NCBI RefSeq assembly: GCF_018420025.1
Contig: NZ_JAEDAM010000052.1
Span: 1 to 6,953, forward strand
Length of the DNA stretch: 6,953 nucleotides
From: Candidatus Vampirococcus lugosii
GTDB lineage: Bacteria; Patescibacteriota; Gracilibacteria; Absconditabacterales; Absconditicoccaceae
Direction of reading: 5' to 3'
The translations under genes were made by a program, and so were the position numbers. Under the pieces are notes generated by a model that saw only the letters and a program-made list of their open reading frames with translations, was not told the origin of the DNA and searched no databases. This document shows positions 1-6,953 of this stretch, piece after piece. The first letter of the stretch is position 1. Each line of letters starts with the position of its first letter.

Positions 1-525
1 TAGGTTCAAATATTCTATTTATAGACATTAACATAATCTCATTTTTATATTTTTTGATTTTGGAGGTAATTCAGAAAGATTAGCTATATTTCTATGTTTT
101 ACTTTTTTTGTATCTTTATCTCTAAAAGATACAACAATATTAATAATTGATATAAGTTTTTCAATTATATTTATGAGTACTTTTTTTAATAAACATATTA
201 TGATTATTACACTTAAAATAATAAAAGATAAGAAATAATATATTTTATTATAATTAAAAAAGTTATAATTTCAAGAGAAGCCATAATAATAATCGCCACT
301 ACAAAACGCATTTTTAAATTCTTTTTCTTTAGTTCTTAACTTGTTTTTGCTATTTTTTATTTACAAAGATGAGATTAATATCAAGAAATAGGTATAAAAA
401 TTTATCGTTAGATAATTTATATACCTCAGTAAAAAATAGTTTATCAATTCTATTTTTAATTTCTGTTAAATCTCAGATTATATATCAGTTATATAATAGT
501 GGTTTATCCATAATAGTTTTATATA

Positions 526-2676
526 TTAGTTACAAGAACAACTTTCGTTAAGTTTTTTATTCCTTTCTTCAATCAAATTATTCATACTATCAACTTTTGC
601 ATTATATCTATTAACTGAATTATCACTATATTGGTTAACATACATATTATCAATTTCTAATTGTAAACTATTTATTTGTTTATCTAAAGAAGATGTATCT
701 AAGGATATTGGACAAGTGTAATCTCATGAAGTACACCAACAGTAATTATCTTTTTCATGATATCAAATGTCACACTTCCAAGCATTATAGTTATCTTCAG
801 GAACACAATACGCATGTTCAGGCTTAGTATATTCTATTCAATTTAATATACATTTATTAGAGTTACTATCTGTACTATTATTTGAAAATAAAGTATTTAT
901 ATCATCATTAGTGTAATCAGTATCATTTGTATAAGTATTACTTGATGAGTAATTATTAGAAGAAGAACTATAATTTGAATTATTAGATGCATCATCAGAA
1001 AAAACTGAAATAAGAATAAATATTCAAGTTAAAATAAGACATATCAATCACACCCATCATGACCATCAATTATTATTTTTTTTATTTATAATGAATCTAC
1101 TTAATGCTCAATATGTAATAGAATCAACATAAAAAATAAAAAAATAACCATCTTCTTCAGATAATTTTTCTAAAGCATCTGCTCTAATTGTATCTATATG
1201 ATCAAAGACTTCTTTTGCATTTAGCTTTCATGTTTCTACTTTAGAAAGATATGCCCTTATATTATTTAATATATTATCTAATCATTCTGGATTAATTCAT
1301 TCAAATAATTCGATATTATTTTTAGCTAATTCTTCTACTTTATTAAAATATTTTATAGCTTTGGGGTAATTTTCTGATTCAAATTCTTCTTTTCAATTTA
1401 AAAATATTTTTCATAATAGTCAAAAAACTGCTCTTTTTTTTAAATTTTTTAAATATATTTGATCCTCTTTATTAAATTTTTTATTTTCTAGTTCCTCAAT
1501 TTTTTTTGAAGCTCATATAAAGTCTTCATCATCTAATAATTGAATAATTGGTTTTAACTTTATATTTGCTGTAATAGTCTTATAATCTTCATTTATCTTA
1601 TGTTTTAATCAATCAGTACCTACTATATCAATTGCATAATTTAAAACTTTCAAAGCTTCATCTTCTTCATTTAACTCATTGTTTAAATCAAGCATAATAG
1701 TCCTAAAAGCTTCTGCTACTGTATCTCTGATTATTAAAGTTTTACTATCATCATATAATCATAAATCTTCTAATTTTCTTAGTAATTGAGTTATGTCATA
1801 ATGTATTTTTTTTACCTTTGCTTTTTCATCATCATCAAATACTCAATCCTCACTAATATTCATTTCTTCTAATTCTCTTGAAAGTTTACCTAAATCTAGA
1901 TAAATTTTTTCAACTTGTTCATTAGTCTTATTTCATTTAGTATTTTTGAAATATTTATGAAATTTTTTCAAAATCGAATCATCTCATAATTTTGTAGATA
2001 TATCATAAAAAATATTTGATAAATGCTTACCTAAATCTTTTCTAAATTCAGAAATTAAGTCTTTGTTAGTTGATATATCATCAAATAATAAATACTTTTT
2101 TTCAAACATTTTCCAAAACTTATCATCATCTTGTATCTCTTTAAATAGAGTTAAAGAATTTTCAACATATTCAGAATAATCAGAATTAATACTAGGATCT
2201 AACAATAATAAAGTGTATAATATTGCTAAATTCTTTTTATTATTAGATTTTTTAAATAAATCTATAGCATTATTATAATTTTTAGTATTATAAATTGAGA
2301 AAATATTTTTATCATCATCATTTTCAATATCAAACCAGAAAAAGGTATTTAATATTTTTTCTTTAGGATTAGTTAAACTATCTAATGCAGATTTTACATA
2401 TATTTCATTTCTATACTCATGTGTAAAATATAAATCATTTTCATAATCAGGCACTTCTCATATAGCTAAATATTTTAATACATCTTTAGCTCTTTTTGAT
2501 ATTTGTTTTTGATTAGAAGAAGTATCTAGTCATAAAATATTATAACTATTATTAATTAATGGATTATTTACAATAACATAATCTTTTTTAATTGATTCAG
2601 CACAATATTCACACCTAACTGAATCTCTATCAATTTCCTCATCACAGTAAGGGCATTTAATTAAATTATCATTCAT
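526..2676 (-). CDS. Zinc-ribbon + degenerate J-like domain + helical (TPR-like) region + single TM helix + Ser/Asn-rich stalk + Cys-rich domain + coiled coil (716 aa)
   Basis: ATG at 2676..2674 is preceded by an in-frame TAA three codons upstream and overlaps the previous gene's end by 11 nt (ATGAATGATAA). The stop TAA is at 526..528. The supplied ORF 1984..2454 is just the TGA-free, Gly-poor internal stretch (residues 75-230) of this CDS. The N-terminus is MNDNLIKCPYCDEEIDRDSVRCEYC. The J-like segment is SYNILGLDTSSNQKQISKRAKDVLKYLAIGEVPDYEN...IYVKSALDSLTNPKEKILNTFFWF. The TM helix is GWSGWVGLICLILTGIFILISVF. The Cys-rich part is KCILNGIEYTKPEHAYCVPEDNYNAWKCDIGYHEKDNYCWCTSGDYTCP. Confidence 0.85.
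1000..1068 (-). other. Single predicted transmembrane helix of the 716-aa protein
   Basis: GWSGWVGLICLILTGIFILISVF is the only long hydrophobic run in the protein. It is preceded by the basic IINKKNNN and followed by the acidic, polar SDDASNNSNYSSS. Confidence 0.7.
2332..2547 (-). other. J-like domain lacking the catalytic His (VPD instead of HPD)
   Basis: Residues 44-115 align by eye to the J-domain helices I-III. SYNILGLDTSSNQKQISKRAKDVLKYLA corresponds to YYEILGV..A...EIKKAYRKLAMKY. The loop GEVPDYE corresponds to HPD, with V75-P76-D77 at 2446..2454. IYVKSALDSLTNPKEK corresponds to I.EAYEVLSDP.KR. Confidence 0.5.
2602..2655 (-). other. N-terminal CxxC-x10-CxxC zinc ribbon of the 716-aa protein (paralogous to 3728..3781)
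   Basis: CPYCDEEIDRDSVRCEYC (residues 8-25). It has the same Cys spacing and the same KCPYCxEE start as the neighbouring gene. Confidence 0.7.
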
Positions 2677-3790
2677 AGTTATTTATTATAAAATTATTTA
2701 TTATAAAATCTCAATCACTTTTAACATTTTGTTTATTTTCTCACCAAATATATATATTTTCAAAATCTAAACCTTTTCCTCAGAATATTGCATAATAATA
2801 ATATATATCTCCATCAATATCAACTTCATATGAAAATTTATAAAAAGTATATCAATCGATTTTTCTAATATCACTTTCTATATTCTCTCATCAAATTGAT
2901 AGAATATATGATTTTAATCATAATCTAATTTGTTCATTATTTATATCATCAGAGTATATTTTAGCTGTTTCCTCATCTACTTTCTCAGGAATAAATAAAG
3001 TATAATTTCATTTATTAGTTAAAAATCATTTATTTGCATCTTCATTAATCTGAGACAAGGTTTTACTATCTAATTCTTCATTAATTAATAGACTAGAATT
3101 ATTAATAATTAGCCATTTATTAATAAAATATTGCGCATTTATTTCTTTAACTTTTTCAGCTTCATCTGAATAACCTTGAAATGCAATAAATGCTATAGTT
3201 CATAATATTGTAAAAAGGTAAATACTAACTAACCAAATTAATATATTATTTTTTTCTGCTTTACTTTTCTTTACAAAAATTAATAGAAGTAATAAATATA
3301 AGTCATAAAAAGGCACTAATAGTCATAATGAATACCATCAACTTCTTCATAGATTTTTAAATCTAAAAATTGAGAGTATAATTAATCATAAAGTATATAT
3401 TAATCATCAAGATCATTCTTCTCAAATTTCAAGTATTATTCATACTATAAATAATAATATAAATCATAAATTAAACCATAATCTTTTTAGTCATCCATCT
3501 TTTTCTTCTTCTATGTTTTGTTTATTCATGCCAATATTTTTTTCTTTATCTTCCAATTTCTCATTATTTTCTTTAATCTCTTCTTTTTTTTCTATTTTTT
3601 GTACTTCTGTAGATTTAACTTCTTCTTGTTTGTTATTAATATTAGTTTTCTCTTGCTTTTTATGTTTAAGTTCAGTTTTTTCTTCTTTTATCTCTTCCTT
3701 TTTTTCAACTCAAGTAAACCATTCTCAACAATATCTACATTTTTTGGCTTTATCTTGAACTTCTTCTTTACAATAAGGACATTTTTTCAT
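2666..3790 (-). CDS. Zinc-ribbon / Lys-Glu-rich linker / DUF805-like multi-pass membrane protein with a C-terminal domain of unknown function (374 aa)
   Basis: ATG at 3790..3788 lies 12 nt after the Hsp70 stop, in the same frame, and the stop TAA is at 2666..2668. The N-terminus is [25 protein letters not shown] (CxxC-x10-CxxC). A ~75-aa K/E-rich tract follows. Then come about four hydrophobic segments (LWFNLGFILLFIVGIILEI, LIYTLGLIILSIF, YSLGLLVPFYDLYLLLLLIFV, ILIWLVSIYLFTILGTIAFIAF). They contain RFKNLGRSGWYSLGLLVP, which resembles the DUF805 motif (R.hD.GrSGWW.LL.liP). The remaining ~170 aa have no recognisable domain. Confidence 0.85.
2679..2708. repeat. Perfect 15-bp tandem duplication (TTATTTATTATAAAA x2)
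   Basis: 2679..2693 and 2694..2708 are identical. The duplication is in frame in the 374-aa CDS (FIINN-FIINN near its C-terminus). It ends 3 nt upstream of the ATG of the next gene (2676). Confidence 0.95.
3488..3709 (-). repeat. Low-complexity Lys/Glu-rich coding tract with an internal 24-nt duplication (EKKEEIKE twice)
   Basis: Residues ~28-101 of the 374-aa protein. The octapeptide EKKEEIKE occurs at residues 29-36 (3683..3706) and 67-74 (3569..3592), and 22 of 24 nt are identical. The plus-strand ORFs 3513..3758 and 3518..3802 in the supplied track are antisense shadows of this tract. Confidence 0.85.
3728..3781 (-). other. N-terminal CxxC-x10-CxxC zinc ribbon of the 374-aa protein
   Basis: [18 protein letters not shown] (residues 4-21). 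Confidence 0.7.
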
Positions 3791-3802
3791 ATTTATATTT
3801 GA

Positions 3803-6307
3803 TTAATAAAGAGTAATTCCAGAAAGATTACCTCCTTCTATTCTTCATAATTCATCTTTAGGTAATAGTTTAAACAATTCTCTAACAACTGTAGCTAATT
3901 CATCTTTATTATTATTTTTCAAAGCATTTTCTCATTTTTTGAAATAATAATCAGCATCATCTTCGCTATTAAAGTTATATCAACCAAATTTTAAATCATT
4001 ATACATTCTTTCCCACCATTCTATAGTTTCCATTAATATAGATGTTCTTAATCCATCTAATTGTTCATTTATTGATGAAAGTAAAATTTTATCTTGAGTA
4101 TCTATTGCTTTTTTTCATCAGTTTTTTACTGTTTTATATCTAACAACTAATTCTTGAGCTTTATAATCATTAGTTTTTTCCATCTCATCAATGACTCAAT
4201 CTAATATTTCTGTTAATTCATTAAATAATTTTTCTTGAATATCAAACTCAGTATTTTTTTCTAAATTATCTATTTTAACTTTGAAATCTTTTAATTTTTT
4301 ATTAGCTTTTCTTTTTTCATCCTCATCATTATTAGCATTATTAACAGTTCATTCTAAATATGAAATTTCCTCATCAATTTCTTCTTTTTGAGTAGGTGTA
4401 AAACTAGCTCTAATTTTAGCATATCTTTCTTGTTCTCAATCTAAGTCTTTTTTTAATAGTCATAAATCAATTTCTTCATTTAATGTTGTAGTACGAACAT
4501 TTAAAGATAAATCAATTGAAGATATATATGCTTTTACTGATAATTGCCTTGAAGTATCAACCTCAATAGTTACTTCAACAGGAGTTCATGCTTCTAAATC
4601 ATAAGGGATTTTTTCTCATGAAATACCTAAATCACATATAAATTGATTTCTATCAGGATTTTCTGATTCTCATTCATACACTTTTATTGGTAGAGCATTA
4701 GTAGACTCTCCTTTTATTAAACTTTTACTAGTTTTAAATTCAATTGTTTTAGATAAAGGTAGTTTTGAATTTTTTTCAAAAAACCAATACATTTCATCTT
4801 TCCAAGATAAACCATTATTTTGTTTAGCAATTGATACTCAAATATTATATGGTATAGGAATACTTCAAACAGATAATCATTGTGAAATAGTAAAGCTATC
4901 ATTATTTAATTCTAAAGTGTTTCATTTAGAATCAATAAGATAAATCATATAATTATTGGTTTTTCATGCTTCTAATTTTATATTAGCTATAAACTTACCA
5001 TTTTTTATTAGGATTTTATTACTAGAATAATATCAACTTTCACTCTGTATTTGTATAAAAAATTCTTCATCTTCATTTAATCACTCAATGATTCAACTTA
5101 CCATTTCTTCATTTTCAGATGAGACAGCTTCATAGTTTAATTTAATATTATATGAATCTAGACATACTTTATTATTTTCTTTGAATTCATCTTTAATAAT
5201 TTGATTTGATGCATAAATAGCTCCTCCTTTAGAAACTACTGTTAAAGGATCTACACTAGAGTCCACTTCTATTCAAAATTCTTTTTCAAGTCTATCCTTA
5301 ATTATAGGAGATTGAGTACTTCATCATACTAATACTATTTTTTCAATAGAGTTTTTATCTACTCATGATTCATTTATAGTTTCTTTTACTAAAACTAAAG
5401 ATTTTTTCACAAAAGGTTCAACTAATTTTTCAAAATCTTTTTTAGTTATAGTTATATTTAAATAAATTTCATTTCCATTATCATCTTCTCATACTTTATC
5501 AATTTCAACATTAACCTCATTATCATAAGTCAACATTTTCTTTGTATTTTCAGCTAATCATTTAAGTATATTAAATACATTTTTATACTTTTCATTTCAT
5601 CTAGAAAAATTTAATAAAGAGAATTTTTCTGTTATTTTAGGTATAAAGATATTATCTACAATTGCCCAATCAAAATCTTTTCATCATAAAAAATTATCTC
5701 ATTTACTAGATAAGATATTTAACAATCAATCTTTTGATTGAATTAATGCTGTATCAAATGTTCATCCTCATAAGTCATAAACTAACCAATTAGTATTTTG
5801 TTCTTTTCAAAATCAATATGCTATAGCTGCAGCGATAGGTTCTTGCAACAAGACTACTTGTTTAAATCATGCCAATTCTCAAGACCTTTTAGTAGCTTCT
5901 GACTCTAAAGTTGAAAAATGTGCAGGAATTGTTATAACAGCTCCTATAGTATTAACTTCAGGATATTTTTTTAATACAGTACTTTTAAGATACTTTAATA
6001 ACTCAGCTGAAATTTCCTCAGCTTTCATATTTTTATCTACTCTAGGAAAAAATGTTATTTCAGGAGTTCACATTAACCTTTTTACTTCTGCTTTAAAATT
6101 TTGTATATCTCATTTATCAGCATATTTGAAGAGTTTTTCATAAGCTCTTTTTCACACCAGAGGATTATTTGCTTTATCATATCAAAAAACAGATGGTGTG
6201 AATTCATCCATTTCAAAATTTTTAATAATTTCTATATTTCAACAATTATTATATGCTATTGCTGAATTTGTAGTTCAAAGATCAATTCATATTTGAATAG
6301 TAGACAT
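3803..6307 (-). CDS. Divergent Hsp70-family ATPase (834 aa), not a canonical DnaK
   Basis: ATG at 6307..6305 is preceded by an in-frame TAA at 6311..6313, and the stop TAA is at 3803..3805. By my hand count there are 44 in-frame TGA codons. Hsp70 signatures appear only if TGA = Gly: MSTIQIGIDLGTTNSAIAY (phosphate-1), ITIPAHFS, LLQEPIAAAIAYG, WLVYDLGGGTFD (phosphate-2), GDNFLGGKDFD and KIVLVGGSTQSPII (adenosine motif). A substrate-binding beta-domain-like segment follows: NIGVSIAKQ...LPIKVYEGESENPDRNQFICDLGISGEKIPYDLEAGTPVEVTIEVDTSRQLSVKAY. After that comes a ~230-aa helical tail ending ...ELATVVRELFKLLPKDELGRIEGGNLSGITLY. Confidence 0.93.
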
Positions 6308-6318
6308 ATTTTATATGG

Positions 6319-6672
6319 TTAAGGTGTAAATTTATAAACAATGATTTTTGCTTGTTTTATTATATTTCAGTTATTTATCACAGCAGGTTCTATAGTATCT
6401 TTTATTATTCAATCTAATTCAGGAAAATTAGTATCTTCAGTAGCTTTTAATTCATAAAAATTTATTTCTTCTGAATATTTTTCTCATGAAAATCACTTTA
6501 GTTCAATATCCAAATCTTTTATAAATTTCTTTAATCTATCTAAACTTACAGAAATTTTTTCGTTATCTTGATCTTTTAAATAAACAATCTTAGAGATTTT
6601 TTCTCCTAATCTCCATATATCAACTGATAAATTAATCAATTTATTGATATCTATATTTTTATTATCTTTCAT
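6319..6672 (-). CDS. Small GrpE-like protein, candidate nucleotide exchange factor for the downstream Hsp70 (117 aa)
   Basis: ATG at 6672..6670 is the first start after an in-frame TAA. The frame stays open with 4 TGA read as Gly and ends in TAA at 6319..6321. Translation: MKDNKNIDINKLINLSVDIWRLGEKISKIVYLKDQDNEKISVSLDRLKKFIKDLDIELKGFSGEKYSEEINFYELKATEDTNFPELDGIIKDTIEPAVINNGNIIKQAKIIVYKFTP. The C-terminal half follows the GrpE beta-domain pattern (L..l.k.gvE.i...G..fd...h.a....d..p..v..v...GY.lnGr.iR.A.V.V.K). It sits 11 nt upstream of an Hsp70 gene, as grpE does relative to dnaK. Confidence 0.7.
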
Positions 6673-6851
6673 AAATTTTATTAATTTTTAAATATATTAT
6701 ATATAATTATTTTAATCAAAAATTCCAAAGACTTTTTACCTTATTTTTTTATCCCCCCCATTTTTTCGAGCGATAGCGAGATTTATATAAATATTATACC
6801 TTATTAAAAGACCTATAAAGCAATATCGCACAACTAATTTTTAAATATTTA
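6673..6851 (-). promoter_or_regulatory. Intergenic region upstream of the four-gene cluster; probable promoter region
   Basis: This is the only sizeable non-coding gap between minus-strand genes. There are two sigma70-like candidates on the minus strand. One is TTGCTT (6823..6818), a 19-nt spacer, then TATAAT (6798..6793). The other is TTGATT (6719..6714), a 17-nt spacer, then TATATT (6696..6691), which lies 18 nt before the ATG at 6672. Such hexamers arise easily by chance in DNA this AT-rich, so neither is secure. Confidence 0.35.
6753..6780. repeat. GC island: C7 homopolymer (6753..6759), A, T6 (6761..6766), then the 13-nt mirror repeat GAGCGATAGCGAG (6768..6780; AGCGA twice with a 6-nt period)
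   Basis: Read directly from the sequence: atcccccccattttttcgagcgatagcgag. It is the most G+C-dense non-coding stretch in the window. Confidence 0.9.
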
Positions 6852-6953
6852 TTATTTAATAGTAAATGATCTAATAGTATTATAAATATTTTCTTGTACT
6901 ACAGATTTAAAATCTATTGTTGATAATTCTCATTTTTTAAAAAGTTTGGATAA
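6852..6953 (-). CDS. 3' end of an unidentified upstream gene (partial; continues past the window edge)
   Basis: This is the only minus frame open from the window edge. It has 33 sense codons, LSKLFKKGELSTIDFKSVVQENIYNTIRSFTIK (one TGA read as Gly), then TAA at 6852..6854. The other two minus frames hit TAA/TAG within a few codons. No recognisable domain. Confidence 0.35.

Follow-up and report, generated by a model that had tools for sequence, protein, structure and literature searches.

Can a J domain that has lost the His-Pro-Asp (HPD) tripeptide remain coupled to an Hsp70-type ATPase? The question is raised by a stretch of 6,953 nucleotides from Candidatus Vampirococcus lugosii (contig NZ_JAEDAM010000052.1, positions 1 to 6,953 of the forward strand; hereafter the window), in which a minus-strand gene for a 716-residue protein is clustered with a gene for an Hsp70-like ATPase. 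An initial annotation of this DNA had described residues 44-115 of the protein (2332..2547) as a J-like domain in which HPD reads Val-Pro-Asp (V75-P76-D77, at 2446..2454), and these coordinates agree with the present analysis when TGA is read as a sense codon. To judge from profile comparison and structure modelling, the region 2332-2550 is a genuine, remote and highly diverged J-domain homologue that lacks HPD. The protein and the Hsp70-like ATPase are proposed, with a probability of roughly 0.6, to be a J-Hsp70 pair that has co-evolved and been rewired, the J-like domain coupling a membrane-anchored scaffold to its dedicated ATPase.

The homology is seen in comparisons made with profiles of the protein family. 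Aligned by hhalign to eight canonical J domains, the family profile gave a probability of 95.2% and an E-value of 2.7e-8 over 61 columns. A profile of 70 diverse family members, searched against 177,635 PDB sequences, returned 27 matches at E ≤ 10 (best E = 0.0027), every one of them a J-domain protein; a profile of 12 close relatives placed J domains in the first six positions and in 11 of its 13 matches overall, all of them weak (E = 0.065-1). PF00226, the Pfam J-domain family, is the most frequent Pfam match among family members, always below threshold: it is the top family in four of 12 members (best member E = 0.022), and the score of member P0071 is 14.2 bits against a gathering threshold of 27.8. 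NCBIfam and PADLOC scans of the 716-residue protein yielded neither a J domain nor a defence-system match. The protein should therefore be called J-like rather than a strict J-domain protein, as it lacks the HPD feature and does not reach the Pfam threshold.

Structure prediction is consistent with these matches. For an AlphaFold model of residues 36-135 computed from 13 sequences (predicted local distance difference test score, pLDDT, of 69), the 17 best Foldseek matches are all J domains. A full-length model was computed from a 150-sequence alignment (mean pLDDT 86, above 95 over residues 41-530), the alignment rows for structure modelling being uncorrected for code errors that put tryptophan in place of glycine. 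It contains the ~65-residue four-helix J fold with an antiparallel hairpin of helices II and III, DSSP assigning helix I to residues 44-48, helix II to 56-71, helix III to 91-102 and helix IV to 104-112 (pLDDT >95). The loop between helices II and III (residues 72-90) is long and includes a one-turn helix, and helix IV is followed by an FFWF motif at residues 112-115. Helix II is basic, with K57 (K or R in 115 of 137 sequences), K61 (K or R in 123), R62 (126) and K64 (K or R in 116). Were the resemblance due to chance, with a generic helical hairpin that merely starts with a YxILG-like motif, the missing Pfam match of the window protein and Foldseek E-values of ~1 would be as expected. Such a coincidence is nevertheless very improbable in view of the hhalign E-value, the exclusively J-domain matches from the PDB, a similarity that covers helices I-IV in order, and a gene obligately linked to Hsp70 and GrpE homologues.

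The tripeptide VPD is not, by profile-profile alignment and structure modelling, the positional equivalent of HPD that the initial annotation took it to be. Ungapped alignments of helix II, obtained by HMMER with a broad profile and by hhalign, place HPD on A71-I72-G73, and helix II ends at A71 in the AlphaFold model; V75-P76-D77 lies four residues beyond. The layout recognized earlier stands as homology, whereas the correct spacing attributed to it does not: from Y45 to V75 there are 30 residues, as against 26 from Y7 to H33 in Escherichia coli DnaJ, an excess of four. Only a narrow, Gracilibacteria-only profile paired P76-D77 with P34-D35, through a 4-residue gap and with a worse score (E = 0.065). 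This pairing, together with the 84% conservation of Pro76, would suit the idea that V75-P76-D77 is HPD with a single His-to-Val change, so that a V75H substitution would restore canonical stimulation. That idea is improbable: the better-scoring alignments and the end of helix II both put HPD at A71-I72-G73, position 75 is free to vary, position 77 is mostly Glu or Ser, and an Hsp70 that lacks the equivalents of DnaK R167 and Q378 (see below) would offer a restored HPD no contact.

Residue frequencies were counted over 150 family representatives, with the tripeptide tabulated in 130. Position 71 is occupied by Lys (77), Gln (16), Ala (10), Arg (7) or His (5; that is, 5 of 137), position 72 by Ile in 123, and position 73 by Asp (73), Gly (31) or Glu (18), giving a family consensus of K-I-D at 71-73. 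Position 75 holds Val (26), Ile (26), Thr (15), Leu (9), Tyr (8) and others, and Val, Thr, Ile, Ser or Asn among 18 close relatives; Pro occupies position 76 in 114 of 136, and position 77 is Glu (54), Ser (22) or Asp (13). His is found at position 75 in six of the 130 representatives, two of which carry a complete HPD at 75-77. Beyond the tripeptide, Y78 is aromatic in 95%, and D81 and R89 are conserved at 96% and 99%, the family signature being K-I-[D/G]-[E/D]-x-P-[E/S/D]-Y-[D/E]-x-D. A conserved His is absent in both registers, neither of which shows selection for it; HPD is found in ~99% of J domains (PMC13580251, PMC10410713). Conservation of VPD across orthologues, by which the earlier proposal was to be judged, is limited to the proline, with Val variable and the third position Glu, Ser or Asp; because the Val is not conserved, the suggested V75H substitution would probably be uninformative.

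The J-like region is nonetheless the best-conserved part of the protein. Its mean column entropy is 2.02 bits, compared with 2.62 and 3.21 bits in the two halves of the solenoid that follows it, and it contains 15 of the 26 positions conserved at ≥80%, among them the exposed charged residues R62, D81 and R89. That the strongest constraint falls on this region argues against a decaying relic.

The family is large, and its retrieved loci come almost entirely from genomes labelled as belonging to the Candidate Phyla Radiation (CPR). A 3-sequence profile of the cytoplasmic part detected at least 1,210 representative clusters with E ≤ 1e-3, of which 182 reach E ≤ 1e-30; all members are named 'hypothetical protein' in their source records, and one carries an unrelated C-terminal CFI-box domain. 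No family in Pfam or NCBIfam covers them, diverse members giving only sub-threshold tetratricopeptide repeat (TPR) matches. A genome scan with a 7-sequence alignment, limited to one genome per species, retrieved 40 loci, nearly all with CPR labels (Saccharibacteria, Parcubacteria/Paceibacterota, Uhr-, Doudna-, Yanofsky-, Peregrini-, Moranii- and Komeilibacteria, and 'Patescibacteria group'); a few metagenome-assembled genomes are labelled otherwise, perhaps through binning errors. The nearest named homologue of the 716-residue protein is from Candidatus Gracilibacteria bacterium.

Throughout these loci the gene order is conserved, running from a GrpE-like gene through the gene for an ~835-residue Hsp70-like ATPase to the J-like gene and a gene for a Cdc48-like AAA ATPase. 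Among the 40 loci, 38 have the Hsp70-like gene (~835-840 residues) directly before the J-like gene and a homologue of the small GrpE-like ORF (open reading frame) before the Hsp70-like gene. Locus L023 has the Hsp70-like gene and is truncated on its upstream side; L033 has no upstream flank. The two genes adjoin in every locus with enough flank. The same order is found in contig L001, which carries the divergent homologue P0018, and in Gracilibacteria relatives. The initial annotation's aberrant Hsp70 'next door' is indeed in the same operon, but in the window a gene for a 374-residue protein separates the two. Neither the window nor the conserved cluster contains another J-domain gene. No description of this CPR gene cluster, which is conserved across the retrieved loci, was found in the literature. 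The Hsp70-like proteins of CoCoNuT systems (PMC11090510) were considered as a match and rejected on account of their different context.

The Hsp70-like protein retains an ATPase core. It matches PF00012 at E = 7e-73, its nucleotide-binding domain (NBD, residues 1-375) matches the DnaK-type structure 2V7Y at E = 1.5e-58, and its orthologues match the window copy at E = 1e-208 to 1e-259. The catalytic and phosphate-binding residues D8, G10-N13, K70, R71, P143, E171, D194-T199 and D201 (DnaK numbering) are invariant. Matches to the NCBIfam models TIGR02350 and NF001413 are confined to the NBD and score 250-256 bits against cut-offs of 648-822; the HscA equivalog cut-off is likewise missed by far, and no HscC model is among the NCBIfam matches. 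By score and features the protein is neither DnaK nor HscA nor HscC. Its layout consists of the NBD, a beta-rich insertion of ~80-110 residues (~4700..5180 on the minus strand, ~residues 375-510), a divergent beta subdomain of the substrate-binding domain (SBD-beta) and a long helical C-terminal region. The extreme C-terminus reads [M/L]SGIT-x-COOH in nearly all orthologues (3803..3830 in the window; L001-L041), with few and conservative variants (AGIT, VGIT, SGIS, SGIM). This tail recalls the EEVD tail bound by eukaryotic TPR co-chaperones. A further segment, DSF[S/T]ITHGLS, lies just before SBD-beta and resembles the Hsp110 linker EFSITD (PMC13580251). The length of ~835 residues is also Hsp110-like, and both resemblances may be coincidence.

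The surface at which DnaK meets DnaJ has changed in concert. In the DnaJ-DnaK complex, H33 contacts the backbone carbonyl of L391, P34 contacts P419 and D35 contacts R167 and Q378, while lysines and arginines of DnaJ helices II and III meet DnaK E206, D211, E217 and D477 (PMC8215388). R167 is replaced by Val (36) or Ile (4) in 40 of 40 CPR orthologues, which also carry N170 → Q, T173 → I, Q378 → F/Y and D481 → S. The acidic J-docking patch is gone in all 40 (E206 → S/A/Q, D211 → S, E217 → S/T/N), and the allosteric residues R151 and D148 are substituted as well. Within the Hsp70-like family these J-contact substitutions are near-invariant, which suggests a surface that is maintained but different. 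The notion, already present in the initial annotation, that the domain co-evolved with an aberrant Hsp70 fits the loss of R167 and of the acidic patch, and is better supported than the tether that was offered as its alternative.

The proposal of a co-evolved pair builds on the observed homology, the absence of HPD, the family-wide conservation, the gene linkage and the reciprocal residue changes. The J-like domain would serve to dock the Hsp70-like ATPase on the membrane scaffold, at an interface whose canonical polar contacts have been lost from both partners, with no His on one side and no R167, Q378 or acidic patch on the other. Replacement contacts would be largely hydrophobic, with I72, the hydrophobic residue at 75, P76 and Y78, together with D81 and R89, on the J-like side, and V/I167, I173 and F/Y378 on the Hsp70-like side. 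A second likely contact would be made by the [M/L]SGIT-x tail, bound in the solenoid as EEVD is by TPR proteins. In this way the scaffold would keep a motor of the Hsp70 type, powered by ATP, and probably also the AAA unfoldase, on the cytoplasmic side of the membrane. Binding itself, the residues at the interface, any stimulation of the ATPase and the clients are all predictions of this scheme. The extreme conservation of exposed loop residues favours an active interface over a tether alone. More tentatively, and on balance doubtfully, the cluster may encode a membrane-bound Hsp70 machine, hitherto undescribed, made up of the GrpE-like protein, the Hsp70-like ATPase, the J-like anchor with its solenoid and ectodomain, and the AAA ATPase, in which the J domain drives or gates ATP hydrolysis without HPD through a hydrophobic interface whose evolution went together with the loss of R167 and Q378.

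Several points weigh against the co-evolved pair. A direct Pfam scan of the 716-residue protein found no PF00226 match at E ≤ 1, the J-domain scores of its relatives lie well under the 27.8-bit cut-off, and the Foldseek matches to J domains are non-significant (E ≥ 1.1). The initial annotation had named two findings that would count against a J domain, namely profile searches without J-domain similarity and an xPD loop that is not conserved in orthologues: the direct PF00226 scan is indeed empty, but family profiles do match J domains, and of xPD only the Pro is kept. In the Hsp70-like protein, the equivalent of the DnaK interdomain linker VLLLD has no confident placement, since MAFFT aligns it with a conserved IYLFD strand and HMMER with a non-conserved segment. 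Direct contact between the J-like domain and the Hsp70-like ATPase is a predicted interface. Helix II has stayed basic (K57, K61, R62 and K64) although the acidic patch of the Hsp70 is lost, and canonical docking geometry therefore may not apply. Finally, the modelled J-like domain runs rigidly into the solenoid through FFWF, unlike the flexibly tethered domain of DnaJ, an arrangement that would also fit a purely structural cap.

A helix II that stays basic opposite a lost acidic patch, and the rigid packing, would likewise suit a degenerate J fold that has given up regulation of the ATPase and serves as a solenoid cap or passive binding site. In that case the Hsp70-like protein would be recruited mainly by its SGIT-x tail in the solenoid, and its ATPase would be controlled by substrate, the GrpE-like protein or the AAA ATPase. 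The conservation of the tail suits this arrangement, as does the joint absence of HPD and R167, given that replacing the His or Asp of the J domain abolishes stimulation in all systems tested (PMC8215388). It is rather unlikely, though not negligible: no other part of the protein is as conserved as the J-like domain, identities of 92-99% at R62, D81 and R89 are unexpected for a mere cap, and the invariance of J-face residues within the Hsp70-like family suggests that an interface is maintained.

All of these readings presuppose the correct genetic code. The window has a G+C content of 22% and yields only fragments when read with table 11; with TGA as a sense codon, four closely packed minus-strand genes emerge (Table 1). 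The 716-residue frame (526..2676, including a TAA stop at 526-528) is open only in this way. The Hsp70-like gene contains 44 TGA codons and 14 GGN codons. Aligned with standard-code orthologues, 30 of the 44 TGA codons fall in Gly-majority columns and none in a Trp-majority column, Gly occupying 1,103 of ~1,670 orthologue cells at these columns; the N-terminal motif IGIDLGTTNS is obtained only if TGA is Gly. The contig uses code 25 (TGA = Gly), as in Gracilibacteria and Absconditabacteria. Code 4 (TGA = Trp) was ruled out, as TGA sites in the orthologue alignment are mostly Gly and never Trp-majority; many database homologues have been translated with code 4 and show Trp in place of Gly. In the J-like domain, TGA encodes both G49 of the 'ILG' motif and G73 (2458..2460). 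The table-11 frame 1984..2454 opens at the GTG of V75 because the G73 codon just upstream is a stop in that table, so the earlier diagnosis of a mis-called start was correct.

Table 1. Coordinates of genes and protein features in the window (residue numbers refer to the 716-residue protein)
Feature	Position	Strand	Description
J-like gene (716 residues)	526..2676	-	Zinc ribbon, J-like domain, TPR-like alpha-solenoid, one predicted transmembrane helix and a Cys-containing extracytoplasmic module
Gene for 374-residue zinc-ribbon and multi-transmembrane protein	2666..3790	-	Between the Hsp70-like and J-like genes
Hsp70-like ATPase gene (834 residues)	3803..6307	-	
GrpE-like gene (117 residues)	6319..6672	-	Putative nucleotide-exchange factor
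AAA ATPase gene remnant	350..511	-	N-terminal codons match orthologues
Zinc ribbon (CPYC...CEYC)	2593..2661	-	Residues 6-28; sub-threshold Pfam Zn_ribbon matches; two short strands in the model
J-like domain	2332..2550	-	Residues 43-115; profile comparison, AlphaFold, DSSP
A71-I72-G73 (GCT ATA TGA)	2458..2466	-	Corresponds to DnaJ H33-P34-D35 in the register with the best support
V75-P76-D77 (GTG CCT GAT)	2446..2454	-	In the extended, acidic loop between helices II and III
TPR-like alpha-solenoid	1075..2319	-	Residues 120-534; all-helical; AlphaFold pLDDT >90
Predicted transmembrane helix	991..1053	-	~Residues 538-562; hydrophobic stretch GWVGLICLILTGIFILISVF; helix 542-562 in the model
Extracytoplasmic part	529..990	-	Disordered low-complexity Ser/Asn linker, Cys-rich beta module (608-648), helical hairpin (662-712)

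The remainder of the 716-residue protein suggests how the J-like domain is presented. The domain would be the cytoplasmic head, near the N-terminus, of a protein predicted to span the membrane once. The zinc ribbon that precedes it is limited to one Gracilibacteria sub-clade of the family, as judged by presence or absence in close homologues. The best Foldseek matches of the full-length model are generic TPR proteins, at non-significant values (E = 0.004-0.1), and Pfam gives a sub-threshold TPR_2 match at residues 428-454. Beyond the membrane, the ectodomain is marked by the motif TYV[D/N]xYSxxSVxxYN...NC (529..870), which occurs at the C-terminal end of the J-like protein itself or is encoded by a gene of its own. 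In many CPR genomes the module forms a separate transmembrane protein of ~210 residues encoded just downstream (e.g. L001, 6540..7193), and the difference is one of gene fusion or fission within the cluster.

Among the neighbours, the first gene of the cluster encodes what is, from its family matches, a divergent GrpE-like protein. Of 15 members of this small-protein family that were scanned, 10 match PF01025 (GrpE), with a best E-value of 1.3e-7. The window copy is one of the five without a direct PF01025 match and is linked to its orthologues at E = 1e-10 to 1e-18. A GrpE-like profile searched against PDB sequences found nothing. Most CPR orthologues have an N-terminal transmembrane helix, which the window copy lacks, and would accordingly be membrane-anchored exchange factors. 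At the other end of the cluster, ~37 of the 40 loci encode a single-domain AAA ATPase of ~360 residues that resembles the D2 domain of Cdc48/VCP (E = 1e-82). In the window only a stub remains, in which ~45 N-terminal codons match orthologues before the frame diverges and a TAG follows codon 53; the gene is intact in the close relatives L042 and L043 and in L001. Positions 1..350 of the window bear no recognizable relation to the AAA gene. The stub could be a pseudogene, or could have arisen by rearrangement or through an error of assembly where the contig ends.

The gene for the 374-residue protein, which at its 3' end runs into the start of the J-like gene, is lineage-specific and absent from the slot between the Hsp70-like and J-like genes in other CPR loci; in the relative L043, a DUF2569 membrane protein occupies this slot. 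Its ribbon motif, CPYC...CRYC, resembles the N-terminal ribbon of the 716-residue protein. Three other frames, 31..360 on the minus strand (110 residues, with a hydrophobic stretch) and 3309..3847 and 4167..4940 on the plus strand, are long, low in complexity and antisense to or outside the real genes, and are probably artefacts of the 22% G+C composition. A defence-system reading of the cluster is disfavoured, as PADLOC has no match for the J-like or Hsp70-like proteins and the cluster is conserved across the CPR loci examined; two small neighbouring proteins gave only weak, chance-level PADLOC matches.

HPD is held to be the defining and indispensable feature of the J domain, and here a large family without it keeps the domain under the strongest constraint. 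The dedicated Hsp70 has lost exactly those residues that HPD contacts, and the two together offer a natural experiment on how J-Hsp70 coupling may be rewired. Because surveys of J proteins are based on Pfam/InterPro annotation and discard sequences without HPD, they would miss the J-like CPR family; DNAJB13 has been noted as HPD-less (PMC10410713). On code 25 contigs, moreover, translation with table 11 or 4 hides or breaks up the genes of the cluster. Through the J-like domain, an unannotated cluster of five genes that is apparently conserved across CPR/Patescibacteria becomes approachable in functional terms for the first time. If the proposed coupling is true, this would be the first natural J-Hsp70 pair outside the HPD rule and lineage-defining for episymbiotic ultrasmall bacteria, in which it might couple an extracellular signal or structure to the remodelling or extraction of cytoplasmic proteins.

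The protein can be compared with several known systems. With the canonical J domain (PF00226; E. coli DnaJ 1-70, PDB 1XBL/5NRO) it shares the four-helix layout, Y-x-[IV]-L-G-[LV] in helix I, a basic helix II, [VI]-K-[ED]-A-x-x-x-L-[ST]-x-P-x-K-R across helices III-IV, and a coding position beside Hsp70 and GrpE homologues. It differs in the absence of HPD and in a longer, acidic loop between helices II and III with the motif P-x-Y-x-x-D, and its helix IV leads into an FFWF segment packed on the solenoid, where DnaJ has a flexible G/F linker. Mitochondrial Pam16/Tim16 is likewise J-like and HPD-less. It acts at the TIM23 import motor as the partner of Pam18, itself a true J protein, and alongside a canonical Hsp70 in which the Arg corresponding to R167 is retained. 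The J fold, the loss of HPD and a membrane-associated, Hsp70-linked context are thus common to both; unlike Pam16, the CPR cluster contains no second J protein, and its Hsp70 has lost the HPD-contact residues.

The association of a J-type module with a TPR-like solenoid in one polypeptide is shared with the TPR-containing class C J proteins DNAJC3/p58IPK and DNAJC7. EEVD tails bind TPR co-chaperones, and the CPR pair has in common with such systems a conserved peptide at the extreme C-terminus of the Hsp70 and its putative docking to the repeats. The CPR protein differs from DNAJC3 and DNAJC7 in that the J-like domain comes first and the protein is predicted to be membrane-anchored, and the tail of its partner is [M/L]SGIT-x rather than EEVD. 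Cyanobacterial DnaK1-DnaJ3, which acts at type IV pilus motors (PMC9239167), is a bacterial precedent for an Hsp70 paralogue that, with its own J protein, serves a machine associated with the membrane in place of general folding. Unlike the products of the CPR cluster, its proteins are annotated as DnaK and DnaJ homologues, and a relationship with the cluster in sequence or operon was neither tested nor seen.

The E. coli protein HscC is a divergent Hsp70 with dedicated J proteins, DjlB and DjlC, of which DjlC is membrane-anchored (PMC8215388) and which both carry the variant HPE (PMC10410713). Here, too, a specialised and divergent Hsp70 paralogue has its own J protein, and both Hsp70s have a shortened J-contact loop around D211. 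HscC, however, has 550-580 residues and is thought to be GrpE-independent, whereas the CPR Hsp70-like protein has ~835 residues and an insertion and is encoded with GrpE-like and AAA genes; DjlB and DjlC keep His-Pro-(Glu), whereas the CPR family conserves neither His-Pro-Glu nor His-Pro-Asp. By analogy, the CPR protein may work like a class C J protein with a specialised Hsp70, much as DjlB and DjlC do with HscC.

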